Below are positions 1 to 13,364 of a stretch of DNA of 14,898 nt, piece after piece; position 1 is the first letter of the stretch; every line of letters starts with the position of its first letter. Below the pieces are notes generated by a model that was given only the letters and a program-made list of their open reading frames with translations, was not told the origin of the DNA and made no database searches. The position numbers and the translations under genes were made by a program. Location of the stretch: IMG/VR virus record IMGVR_UViG_2663762992_000011, one strand, 5' to 3'. Origin of the DNA: a virus. Taxonomy: Duplodnaviria > Heunggongvirae > Uroviricota > Caudoviricetes.

Positions 1-480
1 GAAAACGTGCTGCTGCACAAGCTGCCGGTGAAACGCCTGCAACTGGCTGATGGCAGCACCGCCCTGGTGACCACAGCGGCTAATTCAGATATTCGCGTAT
101 CTGATGTTACGCCCCTTACAAAATCCCTTCAAGCACCAAAGCGCACACCGAAAAAGCATCGTGCCAGAGTCTATATGCTGCGTACTGGTATAGAGGGATG
201 GACAGAAAATGACATTCTTCGCTACTGCCGTCTGTCTTCTGGTCGTAACTATGCAACAGAGTTAGAACGCCAGCTTGGAATCACTCTGGAGCGTATCGAC
301 GAAAAGAATCCTGATGGTATCGGAACACACCTTCGCTACCGTTTCTCCTGCCGTGGTGATGTTCTGAAAGTGATCACTCATATTAACCATCTTGCGAACA
401 TAAATGATCACAACGGACTTTCTCAGCCGGAAATTGCCGACATTCTGAAACTCTACCCGGACGCGTTTAACGCCGCTTAA
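1..480 (+). CDS. Hypothetical protein, probably 5'-partial (reading frame is open to position 1; first in-window start is GTG at 7)
   Basis: Open frame runs from the window edge to the stop at 478-480. The next gene starts 13 bp downstream with its own RBS (GGAGA). I do not recognise a family. Confidence 0.5.
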   Translation, partial: ENVLLHKLPVKRLQLADGSTALVTTAANSDIRVSDVTPLTKSLQAPKRTPKKHRARVYMLRTGIEGWTENDILRYCRLSSGRNYATELERQLGITLERIDEKNPDGIGTHLRYRFSCRGDVLKVITHINHLANINDHNGLSQPEIADILKLYPDAFNAA

Positions 481-492
481 CGGAGACTGAAA

Positions 493-1326
493 ATGAACAT
501 CGAAAAAAGCAGATTAATTTCTGAGGCCGCCCCTCATCTGAACGCCTCTCTGAGCACAATTAACGGTAATGAATTTGCCGCAATTGTCCCGGTTATTCCT
601 GGTCATATCGGTGGGCGTGAAACCAATATTGTTAGCGCAAAAGCGTTACACAAAGCGTTGGGCGTGGGAAAAGACTTCTCTACATGGATCACTGATCGCA
701 TCTCTGAATATGACTTCACCATTGGGCACGATTACTCAGTCCATAAAACAATTTCCCCAAATTTGGGGAAAAGCCCGAATGGCGCGGCTTACAGCAAGAT
801 TAAGCAGTCTGGCAGACCCGGCAAAGACTATCTGTTAAGTGTCGGAATGGCGAAAGAACTGGCAATGATCGAACGCAATGATCAGGGTCGCGCTATCCGC
901 CGTTATTTCATCCAGTGCGAGGAAGAATTACAGCGTAGCGTGCCTGAAATCGCCGCCCGCTATCGTCGCCAGCTAAAAGCCCGTATCAGTGCCGCAAACA
1001 ACTTTAAGCCAATGTGCGATGCGCTGAATATGGCCCGTGCCGAGATGGGGAAAACGACGCAGCAACACCACTACACAAACGAGAGCAATATGATTTCTCG
1101 TATCGTTCTTGGTGGGCTAACTGCTAAGCAGTGGGCGCGGATAAATGGCTATTCTGGCGAACCTCGCGACCATATGAACGCAGAACAGCTTGAGCACCTC
1201 TCATATCTCGAAAGCACCAATATCACGTTAATTGATATGGGCATGGAATATGAGCAGCGCAAAGGAGAACTCACCCGCCTGTCGCAACGCTGGCTCGCCA
1301 AGCGTCTGGAGGCGCTCAATGTCTAA
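493..1326 (+). CDS. Phage antirepressor-like protein (AntA-type N-terminal domain)
   Basis: 277-aa ORF. The N-terminal segment VSAKALHKALGVGKDFSTWITDRISEYDFTIGHDYSV resembles the AntA/AntB antirepressor domain pattern, from memory of the family and not from a search. RBS-like GGAGA lies upstream of the ATG at 493. Confidence 0.55.
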   Translation: MNIEKSRLISEAAPHLNASLSTINGNEFAAIVPVIPGHIGGRETNIVSAKALHKALGVGKDFSTWITDRISEYDFTIGHDYSVHKTISPNLGKSPNGAAYSKIKQSGRPGKDYLLSVGMAKELAMIERNDQGRAIRRYFIQCEEELQRSVPEIAARYRRQLKARISAANNFKPMCDALNMARAEMGKTTQQHHYTNESNMISRIVLGGLTAKQWARINGYSGEPRDHMNAEQLEHLSYLESTNITLIDMGMEYEQRKGELTRLSQRWLAKRLEALNV

Positions 1327-1498
1327 GCCAACAGGAACACCACAACCACAAAAACGCTACAAAGATGCCCACGGAGCACTCGTTACTGTCGAAAGCGTGT
1401 CTCACAACCGAGTGACGTTTTATCGCGACGGGTATCAATCGCCATGCGTACAACCGCTGGCACGTTTCATGAAGGAGTTCGCGGAGGTTAACCAATGA
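1319..1498 (+). CDS. Small hypothetical protein (59 aa), possibly a conserved small prophage protein (DUF4222-like; tentative)
   Basis: ATG at 1319 overlaps the stop of the upstream gene (ATGTCTAA), suggesting translational coupling. Protein is MSKPTGTPQPQKRYKDAHGALVTVESVSHNRVTFYRDGYQSPCVQPLARFMKEFAEVNQ. Below the 60-aa cut-off as a separate ORF; appears in the track only as part of the longer frame 1232..1498. Confidence 0.4.
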   Translation: MSKPTGTPQPQKRYKDAHGALVTVESVSHNRVTFYRDGYQSPCVQPLARFMKEFAEVNQ

Positions 1499-1916
1499 TA
1501 CCCGTCCAGAAGAAGACATTTTCACTGGCTGGTATGTCGCCAAAATCCAGCAATATGACGGCAAAGTCAGGCATTAATACAGCAGATGCAAGCAAAGTTT
1601 ATCATTTGCTGGTGGTCGGAACGGATGCCTTAACCATACCAGAAATCACGGGCGATGATGTTAGCGTTGAGAAGGTCAGCGGCTGCGCCAGAGAATTTCT
1701 GGTCGTAGATGACCTGTTCTGCTCGTGTAGTGACTCCACAAAAACATTCGTCCACGCGCGTGACGTTAACGAAATGAGCGCGATGTACTGTGCTTCTGGT
1801 TCTTCCAATAGTGAGTTTTCGGAGTCCATAAAAAAGAGCTTGCCGTTATGCGGCAACACGGTTTATGGTTATAAGGCACCTCATAAAACGGGTGCCGGGA
1901 TTGGCGTCCTGGTAAA

Positions 1917-1924
1917 TCGAATGG
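1917..1924 (+). promoter_or_regulatory. seqA-like site (TCGAATGG), complementary to the seqB-like element at 2060-2067
   Basis: Exact 8-nt match to the reverse complement of CCATTCGA at 2060-2067. A second copy overlaps the downstream RBS at 2140-2147. Arrangement resembles P4 seqA-seqB-seqC. Confidence 0.35.
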
Positions 1925-1932
1925 CGACATAT

Positions 1933-1954
1933 GACGCGCCGAGCGTCTTTTTTT
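1933..1954 (+). terminator. Rho-independent terminator-like hairpin (GACGC-GCCGA-GCGTC followed by TTTTTTT)
   Basis: Perfect 5-bp GC-rich stem, 5-nt loop, 7-T run, read directly from the sequence. Sits immediately after the seqA-like site. Confidence 0.5.
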
Positions 1955-2024
1955 ATGTCGTAGGTCTGACTCACCCATTTTTTGGGCGTTGGTGTATAAT
2001 CCAGCGCCTTTGTCAATCAATGGT

Positions 2025-2130
2025 GGCTCAGGCAGGGGCTTCTTCGGAAGCGCCGGTATCCATTCGAGCCGGTTACGCCAACCCTGTCTGGGCTACCACC
2101 AGCGAAATTGGCGTTTCCGGTGGTAGCGTT
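2025..2130 (+). ncRNA. Candidate C4/CI-like antisense immunity RNA (boundaries approximate)
   Basis: GC-rich untranslated segment with a GCUUC-UUCG-GAAGC tetraloop hairpin (2038-2051), a 9-bp stem GCTACCACC/GGTGGTAGC (2092-2100 / 2119-2127), and the seqB-like CCATTCGA (2060-2067) complementary to flanking TCGAATGG copies. A TATAAT hexamer lies at 1995-2000. Frame 1 over this stretch translates to a Trp/Cys-rich implausible peptide. Confidence 0.35.
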
Positions 2131-2139
2131 ACATGCTAT

Positions 2140-2148
2140 CGAATGGAG
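2140..2148 (+). promoter_or_regulatory. seqC-like site (TCGAATGGA) overlapping the RBS of the Icd-like gene
   Basis: 9-nt complementarity to 2059-2067. GGAGG (2145-2149) is the RBS for the ATG at 2157, so pairing would occlude translation initiation, as described for P1 c4 and P4 cI targets. Confidence 0.35.
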
Positions 2149-2156
2149 GCTGCCAC

Positions 2157-2351
2157 ATGCTGGCTACTACCCCTACCCAAAAACCGCAATTTATCTGGAT
2201 TATCGCCGCAGTTCGCCGCGATTGCCCGACAATTACCGCCAAAATTCATCATATTGCTGCCGAGTCTGAACGCGATGCTCGCCGTTCTCTGGTGCGCGAT
2301 CACATCTGCTTTTTTGCTGGTCGTATCCGCATGGAGGTGGCACATGATTAA
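2157..2351 (+). CDS. Small protein, Icd-like (host cell division inhibitor-like; tentative)
   Basis: ATG at 2157 with GGAGG RBS 7 nt upstream. 64-aa product MLATTPTQKPQFIWIIAAVRRDCPTITAKIHHIAAESERDARRSLVRDHICFFAGRIRMEVAHD. Its position right after the C4/CI-like RNA matches the P1 c4-icd layout. The ESERDARR...FAGR pattern matches my recollection of Icd-like proteins; not verified. Confidence 0.5.
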   Translation: MLATTPTQKPQFIWIIAAVRRDCPTITAKIHHIAAESERDARRSLVRDHICFFAGRIRMEVAHD

Positions 2352-2562
2352 AACCTACGATGTGCATATGGATCCCCTCGAACGCACAAGCCAGATCATC
2401 ACACTGACAGAAGTGATTAACGACATTCTGGTGAGCAACTCTCCCTCACGAGACGAAAGACTAAAGGCGTTACTCGCGATATTGGATCTCGCCGTTCGTG
2501 ACGTTCATTTCCTGCTGGAAGGTGGACAAATGCCATGCAAAACGGGGGCAACCAATGAATAA
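2344..2562 (+). CDS. Small hypothetical protein (72 aa)
   Basis: ATG at 2344 overlaps the stop of the previous gene (ATGATTAA). Plausible protein-like sequence MIKTYDVHMDPLERTSQIITLTEVINDILVSNSPSRDERLKALLAILDLAVRDVHFLLEGGQ... Confidence 0.5.
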   Translation: MIKTYDVHMDPLERTSQIITLTEVINDILVSNSPSRDERLKALLAILDLAVRDVHFLLEGGQMPCKTGATNE

Positions 2563-2749
2563 CTCAATTAATACCCCTCGCCTTACGTCCGCACTTCAAT
2601 TAATCGAGCAAGCAGCGGCTGTCCTGGTTGCTGTCAGTCTTTCGGCTGAAGAAATGGACGCTGCTGATGTCGTGGATGCGATTAAAGCGTGCTCATCTTT
2701 GGTTAACGATGCCCGTGCCGAGCTGGTAATTCTTGGGGGTGAAAAATGA
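2555..2749 (+). CDS. Small hypothetical protein (64 aa)
   Basis: ATG at 2555 overlaps the previous stop (ATGAATAA). The ORF track shows the same frame from 2498; the shorter coupled start is preferred. Confidence 0.45.
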   Translation: MNNSINTPRLTSALQLIEQAAAVLVAVSLSAEEMDAADVVDAIKACSSLVNDARAELVILGGEK

Positions 2750-3009
2750 ATATCAACTTAATTTATCGTCATCCGTGTGAGCTGGAAATTGAATCATTGC
2801 TGGGGCGCGAAGAGCCATATCCAGACACATTCACTCCCGCAGATTGCGCGACTGAACGGCTTACCAGAGCGCGCACAGGTCTGGTTCATGTGATGAATGA
2901 GATTGTTCCCTCGGTGGGAGGGGAACAGGCGACAGTAATCAATAGCTGGCTACAAAAAGTTACCTCCCTGATAGATATCGGTTTAATCGATGTGGAGAGT
3001 GCGAAATGA
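2746..3009 (+). CDS. Small hypothetical protein (87 aa)
   Basis: ATGA overlap with the upstream stop. ORF from the six-frame track. Confidence 0.5.
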   Translation: MNINLIYRHPCELEIESLLGREEPYPDTFTPADCATERLTRARTGLVHVMNEIVPSVGGEQATVINSWLQKVTSLIDIGLIDVESAK

Positions 3010-3227
3010 CCAACATCCAGCTCATTGAAGCGCAATGTCGCATCGAACAGGTTCAGACTGTTTTAGGGTTCTGGCTTGAAGGGGCCAGCCCCAGCAACAG
3101 AGACAAGTTAATGATTGGCGCGGTTATGTCACTGCTCAATGGCGTACCAGAAGCTATTCAGGAAGCGGACGAATTGTTGGGCAAATATGAGTTACAGAAT
3201 CATTCAGGCGAGGCAAAACATGAATAA
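3006..3227 (+). CDS. Small hypothetical protein (73 aa)
   Basis: ATGA overlap with the upstream stop. ORF from the six-frame track. Confidence 0.5.
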   Translation: MTNIQLIEAQCRIEQVQTVLGFWLEGASPSNRDKLMIGAVMSLLNGVPEAIQEADELLGKYELQNHSGEAKHE

Positions 3228-3822
3228 TTTCTTAACTTTCCATGCAGAAGCAACGCCTGACGGCGTAAACATCATGTACCGCAGCAACGATGGCATGACA
3301 GAACGCGTTGAGACCGTCTCATATATTGATGCCGCAAATCGTCTGGATGCCGGGGATTATGACGATAAACCAGATGAAGGCATGTTTATACATCTCGCTA
3401 TTGCCAGTGGCGGCAACCAGGGATATTTCGATTACACATCACAGCATCACGTGATTATGTGGCGCTGGCTGATAGCAACAGCATTCATCAATGAAATGAG
3501 AAAGGAAAACGGCACCGTCAGCATTATTGATGACAGTGGCAATCATTCCGTGGTTTCTGTTTATTCCAATGGCATCGTCGCCATGCCGCTGTATCCAGTA
3601 GCAGAGCGCCTCGCTATGGCAAACAACATTGAGGGCGCAATGATCGAGAAATATGGTGTTGATGTCGGAACAAATAATGCCATCATTTTTTACAGCAACA
3701 TGTTCGATGTCGAACAGGGAACACTCACTTCGTTTGGGCGAGAAGTGCTTGCCGATCTTCACAACAGCTTTATTGCCGAACTAAACGAAAACGGCATCCC
3801 AGAAGCACCAGTGACGCACTAA
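3220..3822 (+). CDS. Hypothetical protein (200 aa) immediately upstream of the primase
   Basis: ATG at 3220 overlaps the stop of the previous ORF (ATGAATAA), same frame as track ORF 3115..3822. Position is analogous to the small gene preceding alpha in P4-type left operons; no domain recognised. Confidence 0.55.
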   Translation: MNNFLTFHAEATPDGVNIMYRSNDGMTERVETVSYIDAANRLDAGDYDDKPDEGMFIHLAIASGGNQGYFDYTSQHHVIMWRWLIATAFINEMRKENGTVSIIDDSGNHSVVSVYSNGIVAMPLYPVAERLAMANNIEGAMIEKYGVDVGTNNAIIFYSNMFDVEQGTLTSFGREVLADLHNSFIAELNENGIPEAPVTH

Positions 3823-3834
3823 ACGGGGGCCAGA

Positions 3835-6591
3835 ATGCGAAACATTGATCTTATCCGTCAGGTTATCAGTGCGTCTGAAAACAACTGGCCTCATGTGCTG
3901 GGCTGCCTGAACATAAATGTCCCTGACTCTCCGCGCCGTCATGCTCCCTGCCCTGCATGTGGGGGCAAAGATCGATTCCGGTTCGATGACAACGGGCGCG
4001 GTAGCTTCATCTGTAATCAGTGCGGCGCTGGTGATGGGCTGGATTTAATTAAACGCGTAAATAACTGCGACACAACAGAGGCGGCGCTGCTTGCCGCTGA
4101 TGTTCTGGGTATTGATTACCGGACAACGGAAACACCAGAAGCCACCAGCCAGAAACGGGAACAACTGGAAACCGAGCGCCAGCGACGCGAACAGGAGCGC
4201 CTGAAAAGGGCGGAGAAGGACGAACAACAAAGACGGGATACGTTTTCCCGTCAGTTTGATGACATGCGCAGAAAGGCTGTAAACGGCAAATCTGATTATC
4301 TGGTTGCGAAAGGGGTAGGTGATTTTACATTCCCCGTGTTGCCCGATGGATCTCTGTTGCTGGCGCTGGTGGATAAATCCGGCGCAGTCACAGCAGCACA
4401 GACTATTACCTCACATGGTGAAAAAAGACTCCTGACAGGTTCAGCAAAGCGGGGGGCATATCACGCCATAAACGCACCAGAAACAACACAGAGCATCTTA
4501 ATCGCAGAAGGGCTGGCAACGGCATTATCTGCCCATTTAATTCGTCCAGAGGCGCTGACAGTGGCGGCGATTGATGCCGGGAACCTGTTATATGTCGCCC
4601 AGGTACTGCGGGATAAATTTCCTTCAGCACAAATCATCATTGCTGCGGATAACGACCACAGCGAAGGAAGACAAAACACGGGGAGAATAGCAGCAGAAAA
4701 AGCAGCTTTATCTGTTTCTGGATGGGTGGCATTACCCCCGACAGGTCACAAAGCAGACTGGAATGATTACCACCAAAAACACGGCATTAAATGCGCCACA
4801 GAAGCGTTCAATAAGTCAATGTACCAACCACAGGGTAATGGCGTGAAACAGGAGCCACAGACCATTGAGGGAAGCGATTTTAAGGTTATGGATACCGACC
4901 CACTGAAACCAAGAATAGAAAGCCGCGAGGATGGTATTTATTGGGTATCTCCGAGAGCTGACAGCCAGAGTGGAGAAATCATCAATAACGAAAGCTGGTT
5001 ATGTTCTCCGTTAAGCGTTATCGGTACTGGCAGAGACGATAAAGACCAGTATCTCATTCTTCGCTGGCTGTCGTTTGGTTCTGAAACGCCGACAACCGCT
5101 GCCATTCCACTGGCTGATATTGGTGAACGTGAAGGATGGCGCACACTTAAAGCTGGTGGGGTAAATGTCACGACCAAAAGCAGCCTCAGAGCAATACTGG
5201 CAGACTGGCTACAACGCAGTGGCTCTCGTGAATTGTGGCGTGTTGCTCATGCCACTGGCTGGCAATGCGGAGCGTACATCATGCCTGATGGGGAAATCAT
5301 CGGAACACCTGAAAATCCTGTGCTGTTCAGCGGGAGAAGCTCAGCCGCAGCCGGATATACCGTCTCAGGGAGCGCGAAAAGCTGGCGTGATAACGTGGCG
5401 CGTCTGGCCTTTGGTAACTATTCAATGATGACCGGGATCGGCGCAGCACTGGCAGCGCCATTGATTGGGCTGGTGGGCGCTGACGGGTTCGGCATTCATT
5501 TCTATGAGCAGTCGAGCGCGGGTAAGACCACCACGGCAAACGTGGCGAGCAGCTTATACGGCAACCCTGATTTACTGCGGCTGACGTGGTACGGAACCGC
5601 GCTGGGGCTGGCAAATGAGGCCGCCGCCCACAATGACGGATTAATGCCGCTTGATGAAGTTGGTCAGGGCGCTGATCCTGTCAGCGTTTCACAGTCTGCC
5701 TATGCGTTATTTAACGGTGTAGGGAAACTGCAAGGCGCTAAAGATGGTGGAAACCGGGATCTAAAACGCTGGCGTACAGTGGCAATCAGCACCGGAGAAA
5801 TGGATTTAGAAACATTTATCGCTACTTCCGGGCGAAAAACCAAAGCCGGGCAACTGGTGCGACTGCTGAATATTCCGTTGAGTAAAGCAGTACGCTTTCA
5901 CGATTACCAGAACGGAAAACAGCACGCAGACGCACTGAAAGACGCTTACCAGCATCACCATGGCGCAGCCGGGCGTGAGTGGATTAAATGGCTGGCAGAC
6001 CACCAGCAACAGGCTATTAAAACTGTTCGTGATTGCGAAAGCAGATGGAGAAGCCTGATCCCATCCGATTATGGTGAGCAGGTTCACCGTGTAGCCGCGC
6101 GATTTGCCATTCTGGAGGCCGCATTGTTGTTAGGCGAGGTTGTAACAGGCTGGGATGCTCAGACATGCCGTGATGCGATACAGCACAGCTATAACGCATG
6201 GTTGCGCGAGTTCGGCACAGGTAACAAAGAGCATCAGCAGATTATTGAACAAACGGAGGCATTTCTTAATGCCTATGGGCTTAGCCGTTTTGCACCATTT
6301 CCATACACCCCGGCAGATTTGCCCATCAAAGATTTAGCCGGATACCGTCAGCGTGGAGAACATGACGAAAGTCCAATGATTTTCTACACATTCCCGGCCA
6401 CATTTGAAAAGGAGATCGCATGTGGTTTCAACGCAAAACAGTTTGCTGAAGTGTTGAAAAAAGCCGGGATGCTAACCCCACCAAACAGCGGTCGTGGATA
6501 CCAAAGAAAATCACCACGTATTCAGGGACGACAAATAAACGTTTATGTACTCAATTACCAGCCAGGAGATTACAACTCATCTGAAGAATGA
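3835..6591 (+). CDS. P4 alpha-like DNA primase-helicase (zinc-ribbon + Toprim + P-loop NTPase, 918 aa)
   Basis: N-terminal CxxC...CxxC zinc ribbon (CPACGG...CNQCG). Toprim-like motifs (ILIAEG ... IIIAADNDHSEGRQNTG with a DxD). Walker A-like SSAGKTT and Walker B-like LMPLDEVGQG in the C-terminal half. RBS-like GGGGG before the ATG at 3835. Iterons lie immediately downstream. Confidence 0.9.
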   Translation: MRNIDLIRQVISASENNWPHVLGCLNINVPDSPRRHAPCPACGGKDRFRFDDNGRGSFICNQCGAGDGLDLIKRVNNCDTTEAALLAADVLGIDYRTTETPEATSQKREQLETERQRREQERLKRAEKDEQQRRDTFSRQFDDMRRKAVNGKSDYLVAKGVGDFTFPVLPDGSLLLALVDKSGAVTAAQTITSHGEKRLLTGSAKRGAYHAINAPETTQSILIAEGLATALSAHLIRPEALTVAAIDAGNLLYVAQVLRDKFPSAQIIIAADNDHSEGRQNTGRIAAEKAALSVSGWVALPPTGHKADWNDYHQKHGIKCATEAFNKSMYQPQGNGVKQEPQTIEGSDFKVMDTDPLKPRIESREDGIYWVSPRADSQSGEIINNESWLCSPLSVIGTGRDDKDQYLILRWLSFGSETPTTAAIPLADIGEREGWRTLKAGGVNVTTKSSLRAILADWLQRSGSRELWRVAHATGWQCGAYIMPDGEIIGTPENPVLFSGRSSAAAGYTVSGSAKSWRDNVARLAFGNYSMMTGIGAALAAPLIGLVGADGFGIHFYEQSSAGKTTTANVASSLYGNPDLLRLTWYGTALGLANEAAAHNDGLMPLDEVGQGADPVSVSQSAYALFNGVGKLQGAKDGGNRDLKRWRTVAISTGEMDLETFIATSGRKTKAGQLVRLLNIPLSKAVRFHDYQNGKQHADALKDAYQHHHGAAGREWIKWLADHQQQAIKTVRDCESRWRSLIPSDYGEQVHRVAARFAILEAALLLGEVVTGWDAQTCRDAIQHSYNAWLREFGTGNKEHQQIIEQTEAFLNAYGLSRFAPFPYTPADLPIKDLAGYRQRGEHDESPMIFYTFPATFEKEIACGFNAKQFAEVLKKAGMLTPPNSGRGYQRKSPRIQGRQINVYVLNYQPGDYNSSEE

Positions 6592-6616
6592 GCTTATTCA
6601 TGTGCGTAGAAAAGGT

Positions 6617-6727
6617 GTTGGTTCAGTTGGTTCAGTTGGTTCAATTTGTAAAGAGTATTGTTTTATAAGGATTTTATTCTTTTTATTGAACCAACACTGA
6701 ACCAACAACACGGTATTTTGAACCAAC
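6617..6727. repeat. Iteron cluster 1 (candidate replication origin / crr-like site)
   Basis: Three tandem GTTGGTTCA (6617-6625, 6626-6634, 6635-6643), an AT-rich spacer (6644-6687), then three inverted copies TGAACCAAC (6688-6696, 6698-6706, 6719-6727). Located 26 bp after the primase stop. Confidence 0.75.
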
Positions 6728-7046
6728 ACAATGTGACTGAATTGATGCGCACAACACCTGGCTGGCATCAGAGAGTGTTTTACGAGACTTTCGTAAAATC
6801 CTGTGTACAAGGGCGTGACGTTTTGAAAGTGAGCAATACGAAATTTTCGTAGTTCAGAAAACAGCCCCTGAGAAGTTGTTATGCCTGTTCAGCAAACCAT
6901 CCGCATAGCTGATCGCGAATCAAATTACCAATGGAGTCAGAAGCAAGGGCAGAACTGAAAAGCGCCTGCCGTGAAGAGTAATGCGACACCATAAATATAG
7001 TTTTTAGAGTCCATAAAAAACCTGTCAAAACCTGACATACAGAACG

Positions 7047-7079
7047 ATGCCACCAGCTACTGAACGGTGGCATTTTTTT
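7047..7079 (+). terminator. Rho-independent terminator (ATGCCACC ... GGTGGCAT followed by a T-run)
   Basis: 8-bp perfect stem, 11-nt loop, six T residues (7074-7079). Confidence 0.6.
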
Positions 7080-7143
7080 GTGCTATTTGTTTCATGTTTT
7101 GCAATCATAATGATGAATGTTGCGTTTTATGAAACTATAATGA

Positions 7144-7159
7144 CTGTTGTTTTATACAG
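7144..7159. promoter_or_regulatory. LexA-box-like site CTGT-N8-ACAG (CTGTTGTTTTATACAG)
   Basis: Perfect CTGT/ACAG half-sites with an 8-nt T/A-rich spacer, 16 bp upstream of the ATG at 7175 and just downstream of a TATAAT hexamer (7136-7141). Resembles known SOS boxes such as uvrB-type; heterology index not computed. Confidence 0.35.
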
Positions 7160-7174
7160 TTCTAAGGGGGCATT

Positions 7175-7348
7175 ATGGCTATTTCAGTAAAGCCAGTATT
7201 GATAAGTGAGAAGCAAATGGAAGCGATAAAGAAAATTCAGGAGGAGCAGCGTAAAAAATCAGAGGTAGGAGTTGCGCCAACGATCCACGAAATTGCTCGG
7301 GGATTAATGGATAAGGCGCTGGCTTACACTTTAACTGGACGTGGGTAA
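7175..7348 (+). CDS. Small protein (57 aa), possibly a ribbon-helix-helix-type regulator; absent from the ORF track (below size cut-off)
   Basis: Strong RBS AAGGGGG 4 nt before the ATG at 7175, stop TAA at 7346-7348. Product MAISVKPVLISEKQMEAIKKIQEEQRKKSEVGVAPTIHEIARGLMDKALAYTLTGRG has a strand-helix-helix-like pattern. It directly precedes the large two-gene cargo operon. Confidence 0.45.
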   Translation: MAISVKPVLISEKQMEAIKKIQEEQRKKSEVGVAPTIHEIARGLMDKALAYTLTGRG

Positions 7349-7352
7349 ATTT

Positions 7353-8819
7353 ATGGCTACGTGGCAACAGGGTATTAATTCTGGTGGTTTTCTGGCTGGC
7401 ATTGGTGCGCAAAACGAGAATGCGCCAAAGGCAAGCGACATTAACACAACGCTTGGTCTGATCCGCGAAAACAATGAACTGGCTCGATCAGGTGCAAATA
7501 ACGTTGGTCTGACCGCGTTACGTGGTCTGGCTGGAGTTGCTGATATTTATAAGCAGCAGCAACAGCAGGAACGTAAAGCGGCATTCCAGAAAGGTTATGC
7601 GGATGCTTATGCGTCCGGCGACAGGGAGCAGATGCGTAATCTTATTACAGCATTCCCCGAAGAGTTTGAGGAAGTTCGTAAAGGCATGGGGTATGTCGAT
7701 GACGCCCAGCGGAATGATTTTGGCAATCTGGCGCTTAAGGCTCAGGTCGCTTCGTCGCTTGGTCCGGGTGCATTTGGCAGGTTCATGATGGATAACGAAA
7801 AGGAGATGCGTCGTTTAGGTATCCCTCCAGAAACTATTGCTGAAATGCAGGTTAATGACCCGCAGGGCTTCCAGCATTTCGCAGGTAATCTGGCGCTGTT
7901 TTCTCTCGGTCATGAGAAGTACTTCGATATCAAAGATCGAATGGAAGGTCGGGATATTGAGCGTGGCAAGTTGGCAGAAACAATCCGCAGCAATCAGGCT
8001 GGCGAAGCACTTCAGGCGAGAGGGCAGGATATTAGCCGAGCAAATGCGTTAACGTCAGCATATGCACCAACAGCAGCAATGCAGAATTACAATCAGTACG
8101 CTCAAATGTTAAAGGCGGATCCAGAGGGGGCGGCGGCATTTGCGGCAGCGGCTGGAATTAATACAAACGCCAAAAAATTAATGAGTGTTAGAGAAAACGA
8201 TGATGGCACTGTCACAAAATACTACACAGACGGAAGTGAAGAGCATGGAAAACTAAACCAGCCAATATCTGGAGATGGGTTTCGTCCAATAGCTTTGCCA
8301 ACAGCCCAAAAGATCATGGAAAAGTCGCCAGAAGGGGCTAAAAAAGCTGCTGGATTTGCATACAGAGTTAGGGATGCTCTTGATTCAATGGATACACTGA
8401 AAGGCCAGCTTAGCCCACAGCGAGTGGCGATCATTAATAATGCTTTGGGTAATGGGACGCTGGCTAACTTAACGCTCAGCCCAACAGAGCAGCAATACGT
8501 TGTTAATGCTAATGACGCAATAATGGCAATACTCCGTCAGGAAACAGGGGCAGCTATCGTACCTGCTGAAATGTCAAAATATTATCAAATGTATTTCCCT
8601 CAGCCTGGCGACTCCACAAAAACCATTGATACCAAGCGCCGGAAGATGGAAAACCAGTTCAATTCGCTGAAAGCTGCTTCTGGTCGAGCTTATGATGCTT
8701 TGCGGGTTATTTCAGCAGTTGACAGAGGGACTTCTTCTTCGTCGCAGACATTGCCGCAATCTGAGCAGGTATCACAGCCAGCAGCCAGCAGTAATTTTTC
8801 TTCACTATGGGGTGATTAA
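7353..8819 (+). CDS. Hypothetical protein (488 aa), Ala/Gln-rich, no recognised domain
   Basis: Long ORF (track 7341..8819; ATG at 7353 preferred). Its stop overlaps the start of the next gene (TAATGG). Composition is low-complexity and helical-looking with an S-rich C-terminus; no catalytic motif noticed. Confidence 0.7.
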   Translation: MATWQQGINSGGFLAGIGAQNENAPKASDINTTLGLIRENNELARSGANNVGLTALRGLAGVADIYKQQQQQERKAAFQKGYADAYASGDREQMRNLITAFPEEFEEVRKGMGYVDDAQRNDFGNLALKAQVASSLGPGAFGRFMMDNEKEMRRLGIPPETIAEMQVNDPQGFQHFAGNLALFSLGHEKYFDIKDRMEGRDIERGKLAETIRSNQAGEALQARGQDISRANALTSAYAPTAAMQNYNQYAQMLKADPEGAAAFAAAAGINTNAKKLMSVRENDDGTVTKYYTDGSEEHGKLNQPISGDGFRPIALPTAQKIMEKSPEGAKKAAGFAYRVRDALDSMDTLKGQLSPQRVAIINNALGNGTLANLTLSPTEQQYVVNANDAIMAILRQETGAAIVPAEMSKYYQMYFPQPGDSTKTIDTKRRKMENQFNSLKAASGRAYDALRVISAVDRGTSSSSQTLPQSEQVSQPAASSNFSSLWGD

Positions 8820-10924: not shown

Positions 10925-10985
10925 CAGATGACCATGGATGGTTGGTTATAATAGTAATTAGTATTTTTTCAAATAGTTATGAACA

Positions 10986-11384
10986 TTAACACTTGCCTTT
11001 AACATTGCCGACAAATGAGCCTGTAAATGAGCCTATATCAGATCGACTAATTGTTCGTGTATGGATCACTTTTCCGTCATTTGAGATTGCCCATGTGACA
11101 AGCGTCAGTTGACCATCTCGATAGCTTCTCCCCATCATGGCATTCGGAGATAGCGGGTAATAATCAATACCTCCACCTATACCATCTTTTGCCAAGATAA
11201 GATCCGCCTTCTCTTTACTTATTACCAAATGAAATGTATCTGGTATAGATGATAACTTATAGTTATACCCATCTGAACTTGAGGCTTCTTGTCCTTTCAG
11301 ATCACCAATAATCCAGCATTCAGCGTTCGCTCCAAAAGAAGCAAATAATAAACCGGAGACAACCAATCGCTTCAATTGATTCAC
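10986..11384 (-). CDS. Small secreted (signal-peptide) protein, about 132 aa precursor, function unknown
   Basis: Minus-strand ORF (track 10986..11453). Preferred start is GTG at 11384, preceded by AAAGGGAGGG with a 5-nt spacer, giving a textbook signal peptide MNQLKRLVVSGLLFASFGANA followed by ECW. AT-rich gene, convergent with the 701-aa gene. Confidence 0.55.
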   Translation of the reverse strand: MNQLKRLVVSGLLFASFGANAECWIIGDLKGQEASSSDGYNYKLSSIPDTFHLVISKEKADLILAKDGIGGGIDYYPLSPNAMMGRSYRDGQLTLVTWAISNDGKVIHTRTISRSDIGSFTGSFVGNVKGKC

Positions 11385-11500
11385 ACCAACCCTCCCTTTA
11401 GCGTTGTTTAGAATGGCAATCATCATATATCCAAGACATGGCATTTGGTACATAGCTTGGGTCGGGATTTCAAATCCGCTCCCAGTTGATGGGGCCGTTA

Positions 11501-11935
11501 CAGTACGCGCATATCCGCTTTATGTGAAACAGGAAGATTTTTCTGATATCACTGCCACAGCAAAACACCAATTTCGTGACCAGTACGCGCGCGAGGGGTA
11601 TCAGTTGCAAAAATTTTGCAACTACGTCCGACCAGTACGCACACAATGGCGGGGAGCACCATAAAAGCGTTCTCTACATGAGACAGAGTGGTGGTGATGT
11701 GTTGATTATCGGCGTATATGCGCACAGGACGCGCTATGACAATGTTTTATGCGGGTACACCAATCACATGTATCTGGTGTGATAAATCGCGTTACATGAC
11801 ATCTCATGTTGTGCTGGTGGTTATAACGACGTTCTGAATCTGGCCTTTGCCTGATATTTTGCGACAAGTACGCGCGCGTAGCATCGACAGCATACACATT
11901 GGATATTCATTTTGTGACCAATGCGATAAGTAGCG
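11501..11935. repeat. Dispersed family of about 20-bp repeats (approx. ATTTyGyGACCArTACGCGCGCG); a further copy at 13502-13527
   Basis: Copies at about 11501-11512, 11572-11593, 11626-11642, 11857-11880 (containing the perfect palindrome TACGCGCGCGTA) and 11910-11935, plus 13502-13527. On the minus strand several copies translate to variants of the C-terminus (...LIPLxxxLVTK) of the small ORF 11907..12065. Confidence 0.4.
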
Positions 11936-12065
11936 GGATAAGAATTGATAAAATCAACAGGACGATGATCCACTTTTGATTTTCACTGGCCTTATATCTA
12001 TTTTCATCAATCTTATCAATAATTCGACGCTCTAAGCCGTGCATATCACCGCGAATGGCAATCAT
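11907..12065 (-). CDS. Small tail-anchored membrane protein candidate (52 aa); absent from the ORF track (below size cut-off)
   Basis: Minus-strand ORF MIAIRGDMHGLERRIIDKIDENRYKASENQKWIIVLLILSILIPLLIALVTK: charged N-terminal half and one C-terminal hydrophobic helix. Weak RBS; the start codon is uncertain. Confidence 0.3.
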   Translation of the reverse strand: MIAIRGDMHGLERRIIDKIDENRYKASENQKWIIVLLILSILIPLLIALVTK

Positions 12066-12207
12066 CTCATTGCGAACATCCGAGAAGTGGTTGGCTTAAT
12101 GTTCAATGTGTGGCGTTCTGCCTTTCATGCCTGATCCTCACCTATCGTCACCACCTGCTGGTGTATAAAGGTATTGGCCCAAGCAGCTTTCCAATGGGCA
12201 CTCATGT

Positions 12208-12663
12208 TTATACGCTGACCTTACAATCAATCACCGCTTTTAACTTTTCAGCATTGCTTCCCTGACGCTTCCACGCGCTGTAAATATCTTTATCCCACGC
12301 TTTACCAGCTTTTGTTTGATAGCCTGCTTCATTGATCCGTTCAGCTATCACACGCCCATTATCAAATCCCTGTCGAATGGTATCGGCAATGATCTTTATA
12401 ACTGCCGTTTCGTTATATGGTTTTGGTGGGATGTTCGGCTTTCCGGCAATAAGCGACGCAGCGGCTTTTTCCATGCGCTCCACCAGCCCAAGCATTCGTG
12501 AATCAATAGACTTTTCCGGCTGCCCCAGCTTCATGCGAATCGCATCAACAAGCCAGGAGGTTTTATCTCCTCCAGAAGCGAGAACAGACCGATTAAACTC
12601 ATCCTGCAATTCAGATGGGATGCGGAACGCGACCAGATTAGATTTGCTCATTGCAAAGACCAT
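12208..12663 (-). CDS. Ribbon-helix-helix DNA-binding protein with a C-terminal extension (about 147-151 aa)
   Basis: N-terminal SNLVAFRIPSELQDEFNRSVLASGGDKTSWLVDAIRMKL fits the RHH (Arc/CopG-like) strand-helix-helix pattern. The C-terminal IAERINEAGYQTKAGKAWDKDIYSAWKRQG resembles the DNA-binding helix motif seen in recombinase-type domains (tentative). Start is ambiguous between ATG 12663 and ATG 12651. Confidence 0.6.
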   Translation of the reverse strand: MVFAMSKSNLVAFRIPSELQDEFNRSVLASGGDKTSWLVDAIRMKLGQPEKSIDSRMLGLVERMEKAAASLIAGKPNIPPKPYNETAVIKIIADTIRQGFDNGRVIAERINEAGYQTKAGKAWDKDIYSAWKRQGSNAEKLKAVIDCKVSV

Positions 12664-12680
12664 ATCAGTGAGTAATATCC

Positions 12681-12712
12681 ATACAGTATACCACTGTATA
12701 ACACTGTTATAC
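12681..12712. promoter_or_regulatory. Operator-like repeats upstream of the RHH gene (ACAGT-N5-ACTGT inverted repeat plus direct ACTGT(T)ATA repeats)
   Basis: ACAGT (12683-12687) and ACTGT (12693-12697) are inverted; ACTGTATA (12693-12700) and ACTGTTATA (12703-12711) are direct. They sit in the leader of the minus-strand RHH gene. Confidence 0.3.
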
Positions 12713-12765
12713 GCTCAAATATCAGCCAGAAAATAACGGACCAATCACAAATCTATCGCTGTGTT

Positions 12766-12886
12766 GTTGGTTCAGAGCTGGGCTGTGTTGGTTCAAAATG
12801 AGTTGATGTTGGTTCAATATTTTAGAAAAAACACAATAAAAACAACGCTCTTTACAAATTGAACCAACTGAACCAACTGAACCAAC
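12766..12886. repeat. Iteron cluster 2 (candidate crr/ori-like site), mirror image of cluster 1
   Basis: Three spaced GTTGGTTCA (12766-12774, 12787-12795, 12808-12816), an AT-rich spacer (12817-12859), then three tandem TGAACCAAC (12860-12868, 12869-12877, 12878-12886). This is the reverse-complement arrangement of cluster 1. Confidence 0.75.
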
Positions 12887-12922
12887 ACCTTTTTGCTTAT
12901 CTATATAATCTGAGAGGCAGAA

Positions 12923-13210: not shown

Positions 13211-13309
13211 TGCTCTCTCTGTTTTGGCAAATTACCCCTCACTTTGAAGGGATCGGAGCTATAAAAATGGTTTTAGGTACATTCCTCAAATTGAGGATTG
13301 TGGAAAAAC

Positions 13310-13364
13310 CAATGGGTTAGGCTTTTCCCCCAATGGGGGTTTTCGAAAGTATCAATGGGTTAGG
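13310..13364. repeat. Direct repeats CAATGGGTTAGG (x2) with a partial CAATGGG copy between, at about 21-22 bp phasing
   Basis: Copies at 13310-13321 and 13353-13364, partial copy at 13331-13337. An adjacent perfect palindrome TCCTCAA-A-TTGAGGA lies at 13282-13296. Helical phasing suggests a protein-binding array. Confidence 0.35.
13327..13344 (+). terminator. Weak terminator-like hairpin CCCCC-AAT-GGGGG followed by TTTT
   Basis: 5-bp G/C stem, 3-nt loop and T-run about 115 bp after the PerC-like stop. It overlaps the CAATGGG repeat, so it may be a binding site and not a terminator. Confidence 0.3.

Follow-up and report, generated by a model that had tools for sequence, protein, structure and literature searches.

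The 14,898-nt stretch of DNA analysed here at its full length (IMG/VR record IMGVR_UViG_2663762992_000011, from a virus of the Caudoviricetes; hereafter: the window) carries on its minus strand a small gene, whose product is identified by profile and pairwise comparisons as a divergent member of the Hex/Sf6 gp38 family, at a new position in a satellite. On balance we lean towards the view that this small protein is a periplasmic superinfection-exclusion protein, most likely directed against incoming P22-like phages. The window itself is, to judge from its sequence, an EcCIMP1-like phage-inducible chromosomal island (PICI) with a P22-type ejection-gene module, which places the locus in a class of experimentally verified satellites that protect against a P22-like helper. 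A protein that is so far an anonymous 'hypothetical protein' in 126 of 5426 complete E. coli genomes becomes in this way a candidate for phage exclusion.

Relationship to the Hex/Sf6 gp38 family

The profile of phrog_2651 ('unknown function') matches the small protein with E=1.3e-22 at profile positions 1-116 of 117, and a tblastn search of 50,697 phage records found homologues in 16 of them (29-33% identity over 95-98% of the length, E=3e-13 to 5e-15). They include Sf6 (gene 38, encoding gp38), 434 and lambda-imm434, HK446, HK633, Sf101, Huey and Chlobot, as well as the P22-like Salmonella phages Emek (orf129) and ST-35. The 434 gene is hex, and the homologue of 434/lambda-imm434 is annotated as 'repressor protection protein' (GenBank OL657227), a name that stems from the work reported in PMC3564112. 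A single-sequence, word-indexed search retrieved near-identical copies only, and a four-sequence profile was needed to reach the wider family; the exhaustive profile search then reported 206 clusters (at 50% identity) with E<=1e-3, the matches listed being mostly single-domain proteins of 120-140 aa. In view of these clusters and of the phrog_2651 match, the gene is real and more than a chance open reading frame. Scans of the small protein against Pfam and NCBIfam gave no match.

The small protein shares with 434 Hex and Sf6 gp38 the full-length homology, the size, a signal peptide followed by x-C-W, a C-terminal Cys and the Trp residues. Like hex of 434, its gene resides in a temperate mobile element at an accessory position from which expression in the lysogen is predicted. 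The two differ in that the identity is only about 30%, and in that hex follows cI in the PRM operon, whereas the small gene follows gene 16 in a PICI.

Start codon and composition of the gene

The minus-strand frame is open for 155 codons (10986..11453), and translation from the GTG at 11384 yields 132 aa, MNQLKRLVVSGLLFASFGANA|ECW...KGKC. A preliminary description of the window, made without database searches, had proposed this gene with these coordinates and this reading frame, preceded by a strong ribosome-binding site; the translation agrees, and the Shine-Dalgarno sequence listed in Table 1 is found with its core 6 nt upstream of the GTG. Four in-frame ATG codons lie further upstream (11453, 11444, 11426 and 11423), none of them with a Shine-Dalgarno sequence. 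In the DNA of sister islands the identity extends through the Shine-Dalgarno sequence and the GTG, and divergence is total directly 3' of the GTG; in the island with the SieA-like variant (L019) the Shine-Dalgarno region has lost 2 nt, so that the upstream ATGs no longer share the frame, and the gene is annotated from the GTG. The identity up to the GTG, together with this deletion, confirms the GTG as the start used at this position. The homologues of the small protein likewise begin, in the alignment, at the position equivalent to GTG 11384. We therefore reject ATG 11453, offered as an alternative in the preliminary description, and ATG 11423, chosen by PGAP (145 aa), both of which lack a Shine-Dalgarno sequence and are disfavoured by the sister-island alignment; the PGAP call is probably too long, as the Shine-Dalgarno sequence, the sister islands and the starts of the homologues all support the GTG. 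The gene is AT-rich for its surroundings, as had been remarked, but only modestly so: its GC content is 40.4% vs 47.4% in the window, which corresponds to the 5th percentile among 399-nt windows.

Export signal and predicted structure

The N-terminus exhibits the rule-based features of a Sec signal peptide, namely a basic n-region (MNQLKR, +2), a hydrophobic core of 12 residues and A-N-A at positions -3 to -1. These features are family-wide: among 191 full-length members a basic n-region is found in 182, a hydrophobic core in 185 and A/S/G/T at -1 in 178, with a median signal-peptide length of 19. The canonical signal peptide in front of ECW that the preliminary description had recognised is thus borne out by the conservation (178-185 of 191), and the small protein is almost certainly exported, as predicted from these sequence features. 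The Cys residues that had been noticed near both ends of the mature protein are C23, its second residue, and C132, its last; both are invariant in a 34-sequence alignment, in which W98 is also invariant and W24 nearly so, and the C-terminal Cys is kept in 184 of the 191 full-length members. The position before the first family Cys is E/D/N/S/Q in 151 of the 191 members, and the sequence here reads G-A-N-A-E-C. With the Cys at +2 after an A-x-A-type site, the protein is therefore a predicted substrate of signal peptidase I and not a lipoprotein; a lipoprotein of the Cor/Llp type was rejected, as the Cys stands at +2 after A-N-A|E and the lipobox [LVI][ASTVI][GAS]C is missing.

The AlphaFold2 model, built on the family alignment (pLDDT 89.4, pTM 0.76), shows the signal helix followed by nine beta-strands, of which the first and the last are the two longest; C23 begins the first and C132 ends the last. 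Closure of an antiparallel barrel by these two strands would place both Cys residues next to each other, so the model strongly suggests a C23-C132 disulfide. Taken together, Sec export, cleavage after A21 and a disulfide-stapled periplasmic barrel can be predicted with strong confidence. The mature part contains no hydrophobic segment (maximum KD19 0.57), and a multi-pass inner-membrane topology was rejected on this ground and on that of the all-beta model. Foldseek found no match of the model in the PDB at E<=1e-3 and a single weak match in BFVD (viral); the top structural neighbours are fatty-acid-binding-protein-like structures, lipocalins and the NHBA and TbpB barrels, and a sequence-profile search of the PDB with the small protein gave only noise (E>=1). 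Structure prediction and fold search, recommended in the preliminary description, have therefore delivered a confident beta-barrel model and, as relatives, only generic small barrels: beyond a small, soluble and exported barrel the predicted fold says nothing more, and none of its structural relatives is informative.

Table 1. Positions of the small gene, its parts and the neighbouring features in the window
Feature	Position	Strand	Remarks
P22 gp20-type ejection gene, 488 aa	7353..8819	+	Pfam Inj_translocase, E=7e-85
P22 gp16-type DNA-ejection gene, 701 aa	8819..10924	+	30% identity to P22 gp16 over 482 aa, E=2e-52
Convergent spacer	10925..10985		61 bp, 28% GC, between two stop codons
Hex-family pre-protein, coding sequence	10986..11384	-	132 codons; TAA stop 10986-10988; GTG start 11384-11382
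Predicted mature protein E22-C132	10989..11321	-	111 aa, 12.0 kDa, pI about 7
Predicted signal peptide, codons 1-21	11322..11384	-	MNQLKRLVVSGLLFASFGANA; predicted signal peptidase I site after A21
Shine-Dalgarno sequence GGGAGGG	11390..11396	-	GGAGG core 11395-11391, 6 nt 5' of GTG; kept in sister islands
Upstream leader	11385..11887	-	common to sister islands L001 and L005; BLAST vs L001, L005 and L020

Genomic positions of the family and cassette exchange at one junction

Among the contexts of the family, sampled by exact-protein look-ups, two positions recur. In the first, the gene comes directly after that of a cI-type repressor (helix-turn-helix and S24 peptidase) and overlaps or abuts its stop codon, as in 434, Sf6 and prophages of Yersinia, Enterobacter and others; from this overlap or abutment it follows that the gene is in the PRM maintenance operon. 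In the second, found in P22-like phages and prophages (Emek orf129, the P0017 subfamily and P0022), the gene and gene 16 converge. The latter position is occupied in P22 by sieA, which is also convergent with gene 16, and sieA genes are always located between homologues of genes 16 and 9 (Leavitt et al., PMC10883804). Both positions appear to be those of accessory genes expressed in the lysogen ('morons').

In the P0017 subfamily the Hex-like gene is the last in a co-oriented string of mnt, a Rap1a-like gene and the Hex-like gene. The second of these genes (L006-L008, 4650-4985) encodes a 111-aa protein of the Rap1a family (PF18602) and is found just after mnt on the same strand, ahead of the Hex-like gene, so that these prophages have genes for two exported accessory proteins in their mnt operon. 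Rap1a is a periplasmic immunity protein against a type VI secretion system (T6SS) amidase in Serratia.

The flanks of the small gene, i.e. the 3' end of the gene 16 homologue and the upstream leader, are present in about 605 complete E. coli genomes, and the Hex-like gene lies between them in only the 126 mentioned above. An alignment of three variants reveals identity through the Shine-Dalgarno sequence and the GTG, then full divergence, and a return to identity about 20 nt past the stop of gene 16, which sets the downstream junction at about 10940-10945, inside the convergent spacer. The alternatives to the Hex-like cassette are a 204-aa SieA-like protein with the motif RYPGEA (BLASTP with P22 SieA: E=8e-8; phrog_7745 'SieA-like': E=4e-4; 103 genomes) and a 116-aa multi-pass membrane protein (229 genomes). 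At a junction that is precise to the start codon, the predicted periplasmic barrel is hence exchanged for a SieA-like protein or for a further membrane protein, a clean natural experiment. Three cassettes and, in EcCIMP1, a lipoprotein occur there, one of them recognisable as an exclusion gene; behind the ejection genes there is thus, as read from these alignments, a hot spot for envelope proteins. In our phage collection 41 records contain a P22-type SieA and 16 a Hex-like gene, with zero overlap; this lends weak support, because the SieA set consists of near-clones of P22.

These distributions also bear on the partnership of the small gene with the 488/701-aa pair encoded next to it, which the preliminary description had regarded as cargo and whose co-occurrence with the gene it had proposed as a check. 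In lambdoid phages such as 434 the family adjoins cI at a locus where no gp16/gp20 genes are seen, and the 3' end of the 701-aa gene is found with the same flanks in some 605 genomes, only 126 of which have the small gene; the independent occurrence refutes a specific partnership with the pair and leaves the exclusion idea untouched. Half of another suggestion, an unrelated acquired gene, has held, namely that the gene is acquired: it is a swappable cassette in a hot spot.

The pair itself is not cargo. The 701-aa protein belongs to phrog_770 ('DNA transfer protein') and its orthologue carries PF26808 (Phage_P22_gp16), while the 488-aa protein is 55% identical to the N-terminal half of P22 gp20, its true start being ATG 7353 (MATWQQ) and not GTG 7341, to which the list of open reading frames extends it. 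A toxin or defence role of the pair was thus rejected, both products being P22 gp20/gp16-type ejection proteins. What remains of the arrangement described earlier is the convergence of the small gene and the 701-aa gene, with 61 bp between them; immunity against a membrane-active partner, another of the earlier proposals, has no basis, because the supposed partners are DNA-ejection proteins.

Proposed role in superinfection exclusion

The name Hex, short for 'heterologous exclusion', goes back to work in Salmonella in which P22 was excluded by a lambda-imm434 prophage but not by one that was hex- (Susskind & Botstein 1980, as cited in PMC3564112). The ejection proteins of P22-like phages are released to build a DNA conduit across the envelope, and SieA blocks the injection of DNA through gp16 and gp20, in which the escape mutations are found (PMC10883804). 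Together with the genomic position, the Hex phenotype argues with moderate confidence for the exclusion of P22-like phages. The conduit of gp7/gp20/gp16 as the target is weakly suggested by the analogy to SieA and its escape mutations in gp16 and gp20.

We propose that the Hex-family pre-protein would be expressed from the resident EcCIMP1-like island and exported by Sec, that its 21-residue signal peptide would be cut after ANA, and that the 111-aa mature protein would fold in the periplasm into a small soluble beta-barrel closed by the C23-C132 disulfide. There the barrel would exclude superinfecting phages, those like P22 and possibly others, the likeliest mode being interference with the ejected gp7/gp20/gp16 while they build the trans-envelope conduit. 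The small protein would in this way be a periplasmic analogue of the inner-membrane protein SieA. It agrees with P22 SieA in the position and orientation of its gene, convergent with gene 16, in the presence of a SieA-like gene at the identical junction of sister islands, and in the proposed role, i.e. blocking the entry of P22-like phage DNA. It differs in its topology, SieA passing the inner membrane several times and having a cytoplasmic RYPxEA motif, whereas the small protein is predicted to be a soluble exported barrel. The place of the small gene corresponds to that of sieA between gene 16 and gene 9 in P22; the island has no tailspike gene. Homology to SieA was rejected, as BLASTP against P22 SieA gave E=1.6 and the motif FxRYPxEAxxFNK is absent.

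T4 (Imm and Sp), T5 (Llp) and phi80/HK022 (Cor) encode small proteins of the envelope by which DNA entry is stopped or a receptor masked; all of these are membrane proteins or lipoproteins. The small protein, in contrast, lacks a lipobox, and no homology to them was detected in the PHROG, Pfam and PADLOC scans. Among the options listed in the preliminary description an exclusion factor against an incoming phage fits best, considering the homology to 434 Hex, the sieA position and the SieA-like replacement in sister islands.

Several observations weigh against superinfection exclusion. The phenotype is on record for the 30%-identical 434 Hex alone, at second hand through PMC3564112, and the sole biochemical paper on Hex assigns it a cytoplasmic role (PMC3564112). 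Two homologues from Aeromonas are found in chromosomal contexts not obviously derived from phages, so the family may have a broader periplasmic role, and the T6SS-immunity-like Rap1a-family neighbour in P22-like prophages also fits an anti-toxin function. No PADLOC model matches the small protein (0 families at E<=0.1), and the generic barrel fold offers no functional pointer. Neither a convincing promoter nor a terminator was found at the gene: a scan of the minus strand in the conserved leader of about 500 bp found no convincing sigma-70 promoter, a looser scan gave only weak 8/12 matches (e.g. GTACCA-18-TATGAT at 11451-11422), and no terminator-like hairpin was detected in the 61-bp convergent spacer. 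Finally, EcCIMP1 itself has no Hex-like gene, so the immunity phenotype reported for that island is not directly transferable to the window.

Experiments have verified EcCIMP1 as a PICI whose helper, the P22-like phage Kapi1, mobilises it; the island also contributes to superinfection immunity against Kapi1, by a mechanism that was not identified in that study (Pick et al. 2025, PMC11773190). The EcCIMP1 island family thus influences superinfection, and the link to the Hex-like gene is only suggestive. A more general proposal, to which we give tentative credence and which we consider rather unlikely as a whole, is that the Hex family consists of soluble periplasmic exclusion factors and not of cytoplasmic repressor guardians, a second and non-homologous SieA-like solution that jams the gp7/gp20/gp16 conduit of P22-like phages from the periplasm, and that temperate phages and their PICI satellites swap Hex-like, SieA-like and further envelope cassettes at a fixed junction beside the ejection genes. 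If true, it would overturn the only published mechanism of Hex and would supply a candidate type of gene for the superinfection immunity of EcCIMP1-type satellites; a protein that targets the conduit in the periplasm would also be a handy probe of how short-tailed phages build it.

Alternative explanations

Small disulfide-stapled exported barrels are common among periplasmic inhibitors, e.g. PliC/MliC, and the predicted format of the small protein would agree with an orphan periplasmic immunity protein or inhibitor of a T6SS peptidoglycan effector, a colicin or a lysozyme, protecting its carrier in competition or in the host. The gene that it directly follows in P22-like prophages, co-oriented and of the Rap1a family (PF18602), and the non-phage contexts in Aeromonas point in the same direction. 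We nonetheless judge this improbable: the structural match to PhiA ranks 55 among generic barrels, no better than porins or lipocalins, neither a sequence match nor a family match links the small protein to an immunity or inhibitor family, the only phenotype attached to the family, as reported at second hand, is phage exclusion, and the gene that replaces the small gene in sister islands is SieA-like, not an immunity gene.

Equally modest is the chance we allow to some other lysogenic-conversion function in the envelope, such as that of a calycin-like binder of hydrophobic ligands or a modulator of the host outer membrane or periplasm, in which case an effect on phages would be indirect (receptor masking) or absent. 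The ligand-binding and surface barrels among the top structural neighbours agree with it, as does the fact that lysogen-expressed accessory positions hold many kinds of fitness genes.

Repressor protection is the function that has been published for Hex itself: the protein would bind a LexA-like phage repressor in the cytoplasm, block its RecA-stimulated autocleavage and stabilise lysogeny. It was proposed for the 434 repressor by Shkilnyj et al. (2013), who observed that deletion of hex raises spontaneous induction 30-fold in recA+ cells only, that a plasmid-borne fragment, sHex (E43-N103 of a 158-aa reading, 6 kDa), complements partially (about 7-fold), that sHex refolded from guanidine inhibits the RecA-stimulated cleavage of the 434 and P22 repressors in vitro, and that overexpressed full-length Hex is toxic (PMC3564112). 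The position of many family members directly after a cI with an S24 peptidase domain would suit such a role. Toxicity of this kind is common for overproduced secretory proteins and is in line with export. The published cytoplasmic mechanism conflicts with the export signal common to 434 Hex and the small protein: the Sec signal peptide and the invariant Cys pair are family-wide, and the text of PMC3564112 contains 0 mentions of signal, periplasm or membrane, export being left unconsidered. In the translated 434 locus (L003 2938-3414) cleavage is predicted at ANS|ECW, directly before E43, so that the N-terminus of the stable 434 Hex fragment coincides exactly with the predicted signal-peptidase site, which is equivalent to A21|E22 of the small protein. 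The end of sHex, N103, maps between strands 5 and 6 in the alignment and the model; sHex would therefore be about half a barrel (strands 1-5 of 9), an incomplete refolded structure without the C-terminal Cys. Moreover, the hex deletion lies on the cI transcript and, in our view, may also have affected the expression of cI.

A search of the literature for exclusion by Sf6 gp38 or for a periplasmic Hex gave nothing beyond PMC3564112. Owing to the conserved signal peptide, the cytoplasmic mechanism appears doubtful for native Hex, and the family, named in 1980 and given a mechanism in 2013, seems to carry an overlooked export signal that makes a re-examination of the 2013 mechanism necessary. The copies in the window, Emek, P0017 and P0022 do not adjoin an S24-type repressor, and for the copy in the window the mechanism is for this reason irrelevant; as an explanation of the small protein we regard repressor protection as very unlikely.

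Least credible of all is an integral outer-membrane barrel with 8 strands of the Lom/Ail/OmpX/PagP type, rejected although a homologue is annotated as PagP in one phage record: Pfam gives no match to an outer-membrane protein family, three of the nine predicted strands are just 5 residues long in a mature protein of only 111 aa, and the family ends in an invariant Cys followed by variable polar tails, whereas outer-membrane proteins normally end in an aromatic beta-signal.

Leader sequence and possible regulation

The promoter of the Hex-like gene is probably located within the upstream leader. The last ~135 nt of the leader before the GTG are identical across all three cassette types, and the match to EcCIMP1 of E. 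coli MP1 (L020) ends at 11459. The leader contains three copies of GCGTACTG (11640-11633, 11588-11581 and 11508-11501) and a perfect 17-nt palindrome, TTGCAAAATTTTTGCAA (11621-11605), which may be regulator-binding or operator-like sites. In the closest relative of the window (L024) two small genes of 147 aa and 73 aa lie upstream of the Hex-like gene on the same strand; the N-terminus of the larger product resembles, by eye, a ribbon-helix-helix domain, and the arrangement possibly represents an operon that recalls mnt-...-hex of P22-like prophages.

A second variable segment (11888-12764) adjoins the gene; it is absent from L001, L005 and MP1 and is present in 166 genomes at >=80% coverage. 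It includes a minus-strand open reading frame of 151 aa (12208-12663), whose N-terminus looks like a ribbon-helix-helix by eye and whose sole match is phrog_30270 (E=3e-4), with none in Pfam. In L018 and L019 an Abi-family gene and a 146-aa gene are found between the conserved leader and PerC.

The island and its ejection module

The backbone of the window comprises the AntA antirepressor, ash, a DUF927/Toprim primase-helicase and PerC, and positions 76-7323 exhibit 93-98% nucleotide identity to EcCIMP1 of E. coli MP1. EcCIMP1 is inserted between proA and yagU, and the sister copies are flanked by pao genes and yagU. Like the window, EcCIMP1 has AntA, ash, the DUF927 primase, an ejection module and PerC; its own ejection module differs, however, consisting of a 439-aa gp20-type and a 906-aa transglycosylase-type protein, and a 232-aa lipoprotein takes the place of the Hex-like gene. 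This lipoprotein (MIKNLLLILSLSLLAGC...; L020 11749-12447) is encoded after the ejection genes and co-oriented with them, with a sub-threshold hint of TraT (E=0.09), and is a candidate for the superinfection immunity of EcCIMP1.

In the sister islands the primase gene is followed by gp14 (DUF2824)-gp7-gp20-gp16, and in the window and its closest relative (L024) by gp20 and gp16 only. The backbones of the window and of L005, L018, L019, L020 and L024 contain no capsid, tail or lysis genes in the stretches seen; a satellite with its own ejection proteins for the virion of a helper is unusual. The authors of the EcCIMP1 study guessed that the ejection genes serve DNA packaging (PMC11773190).

The first ~220 nt of gp20 (window 7341-7565) differ from those of the sister islands, and the first ~60 aa that they encode are nearly identical to P22 gp20. 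BLAST detected an isolated copy of this 5' stretch elsewhere in L005 (8453-8677) and in L001 (8495-8720), which points to recombination between gp20 alleles. The primase and gp20 are fused by a deletion in strain D2 (L001), where the remnant bears the PGAP label 'acyltransferase'.

An inverted repeat of ~120 bp (6610-6730 and 12784-12893; arms of 55 nt and 38 nt, 96% and 82% complementary, respectively) that is rich in TTGGTTCA iterons brackets the block of gp20, gp16, the Hex-like gene and the 151-aa open reading frame. One arm closely follows the primase gene, the other closely precedes PerC, and both are also present in EcCIMP1 of MP1; the repeat could be a shared operator/promoter or a recombination site. 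Just downstream of PerC (13282-13364) a 40-nt sequence is directly repeated in tandem; the two copies are 73% identical and both end in CAATGGGTTAGG.

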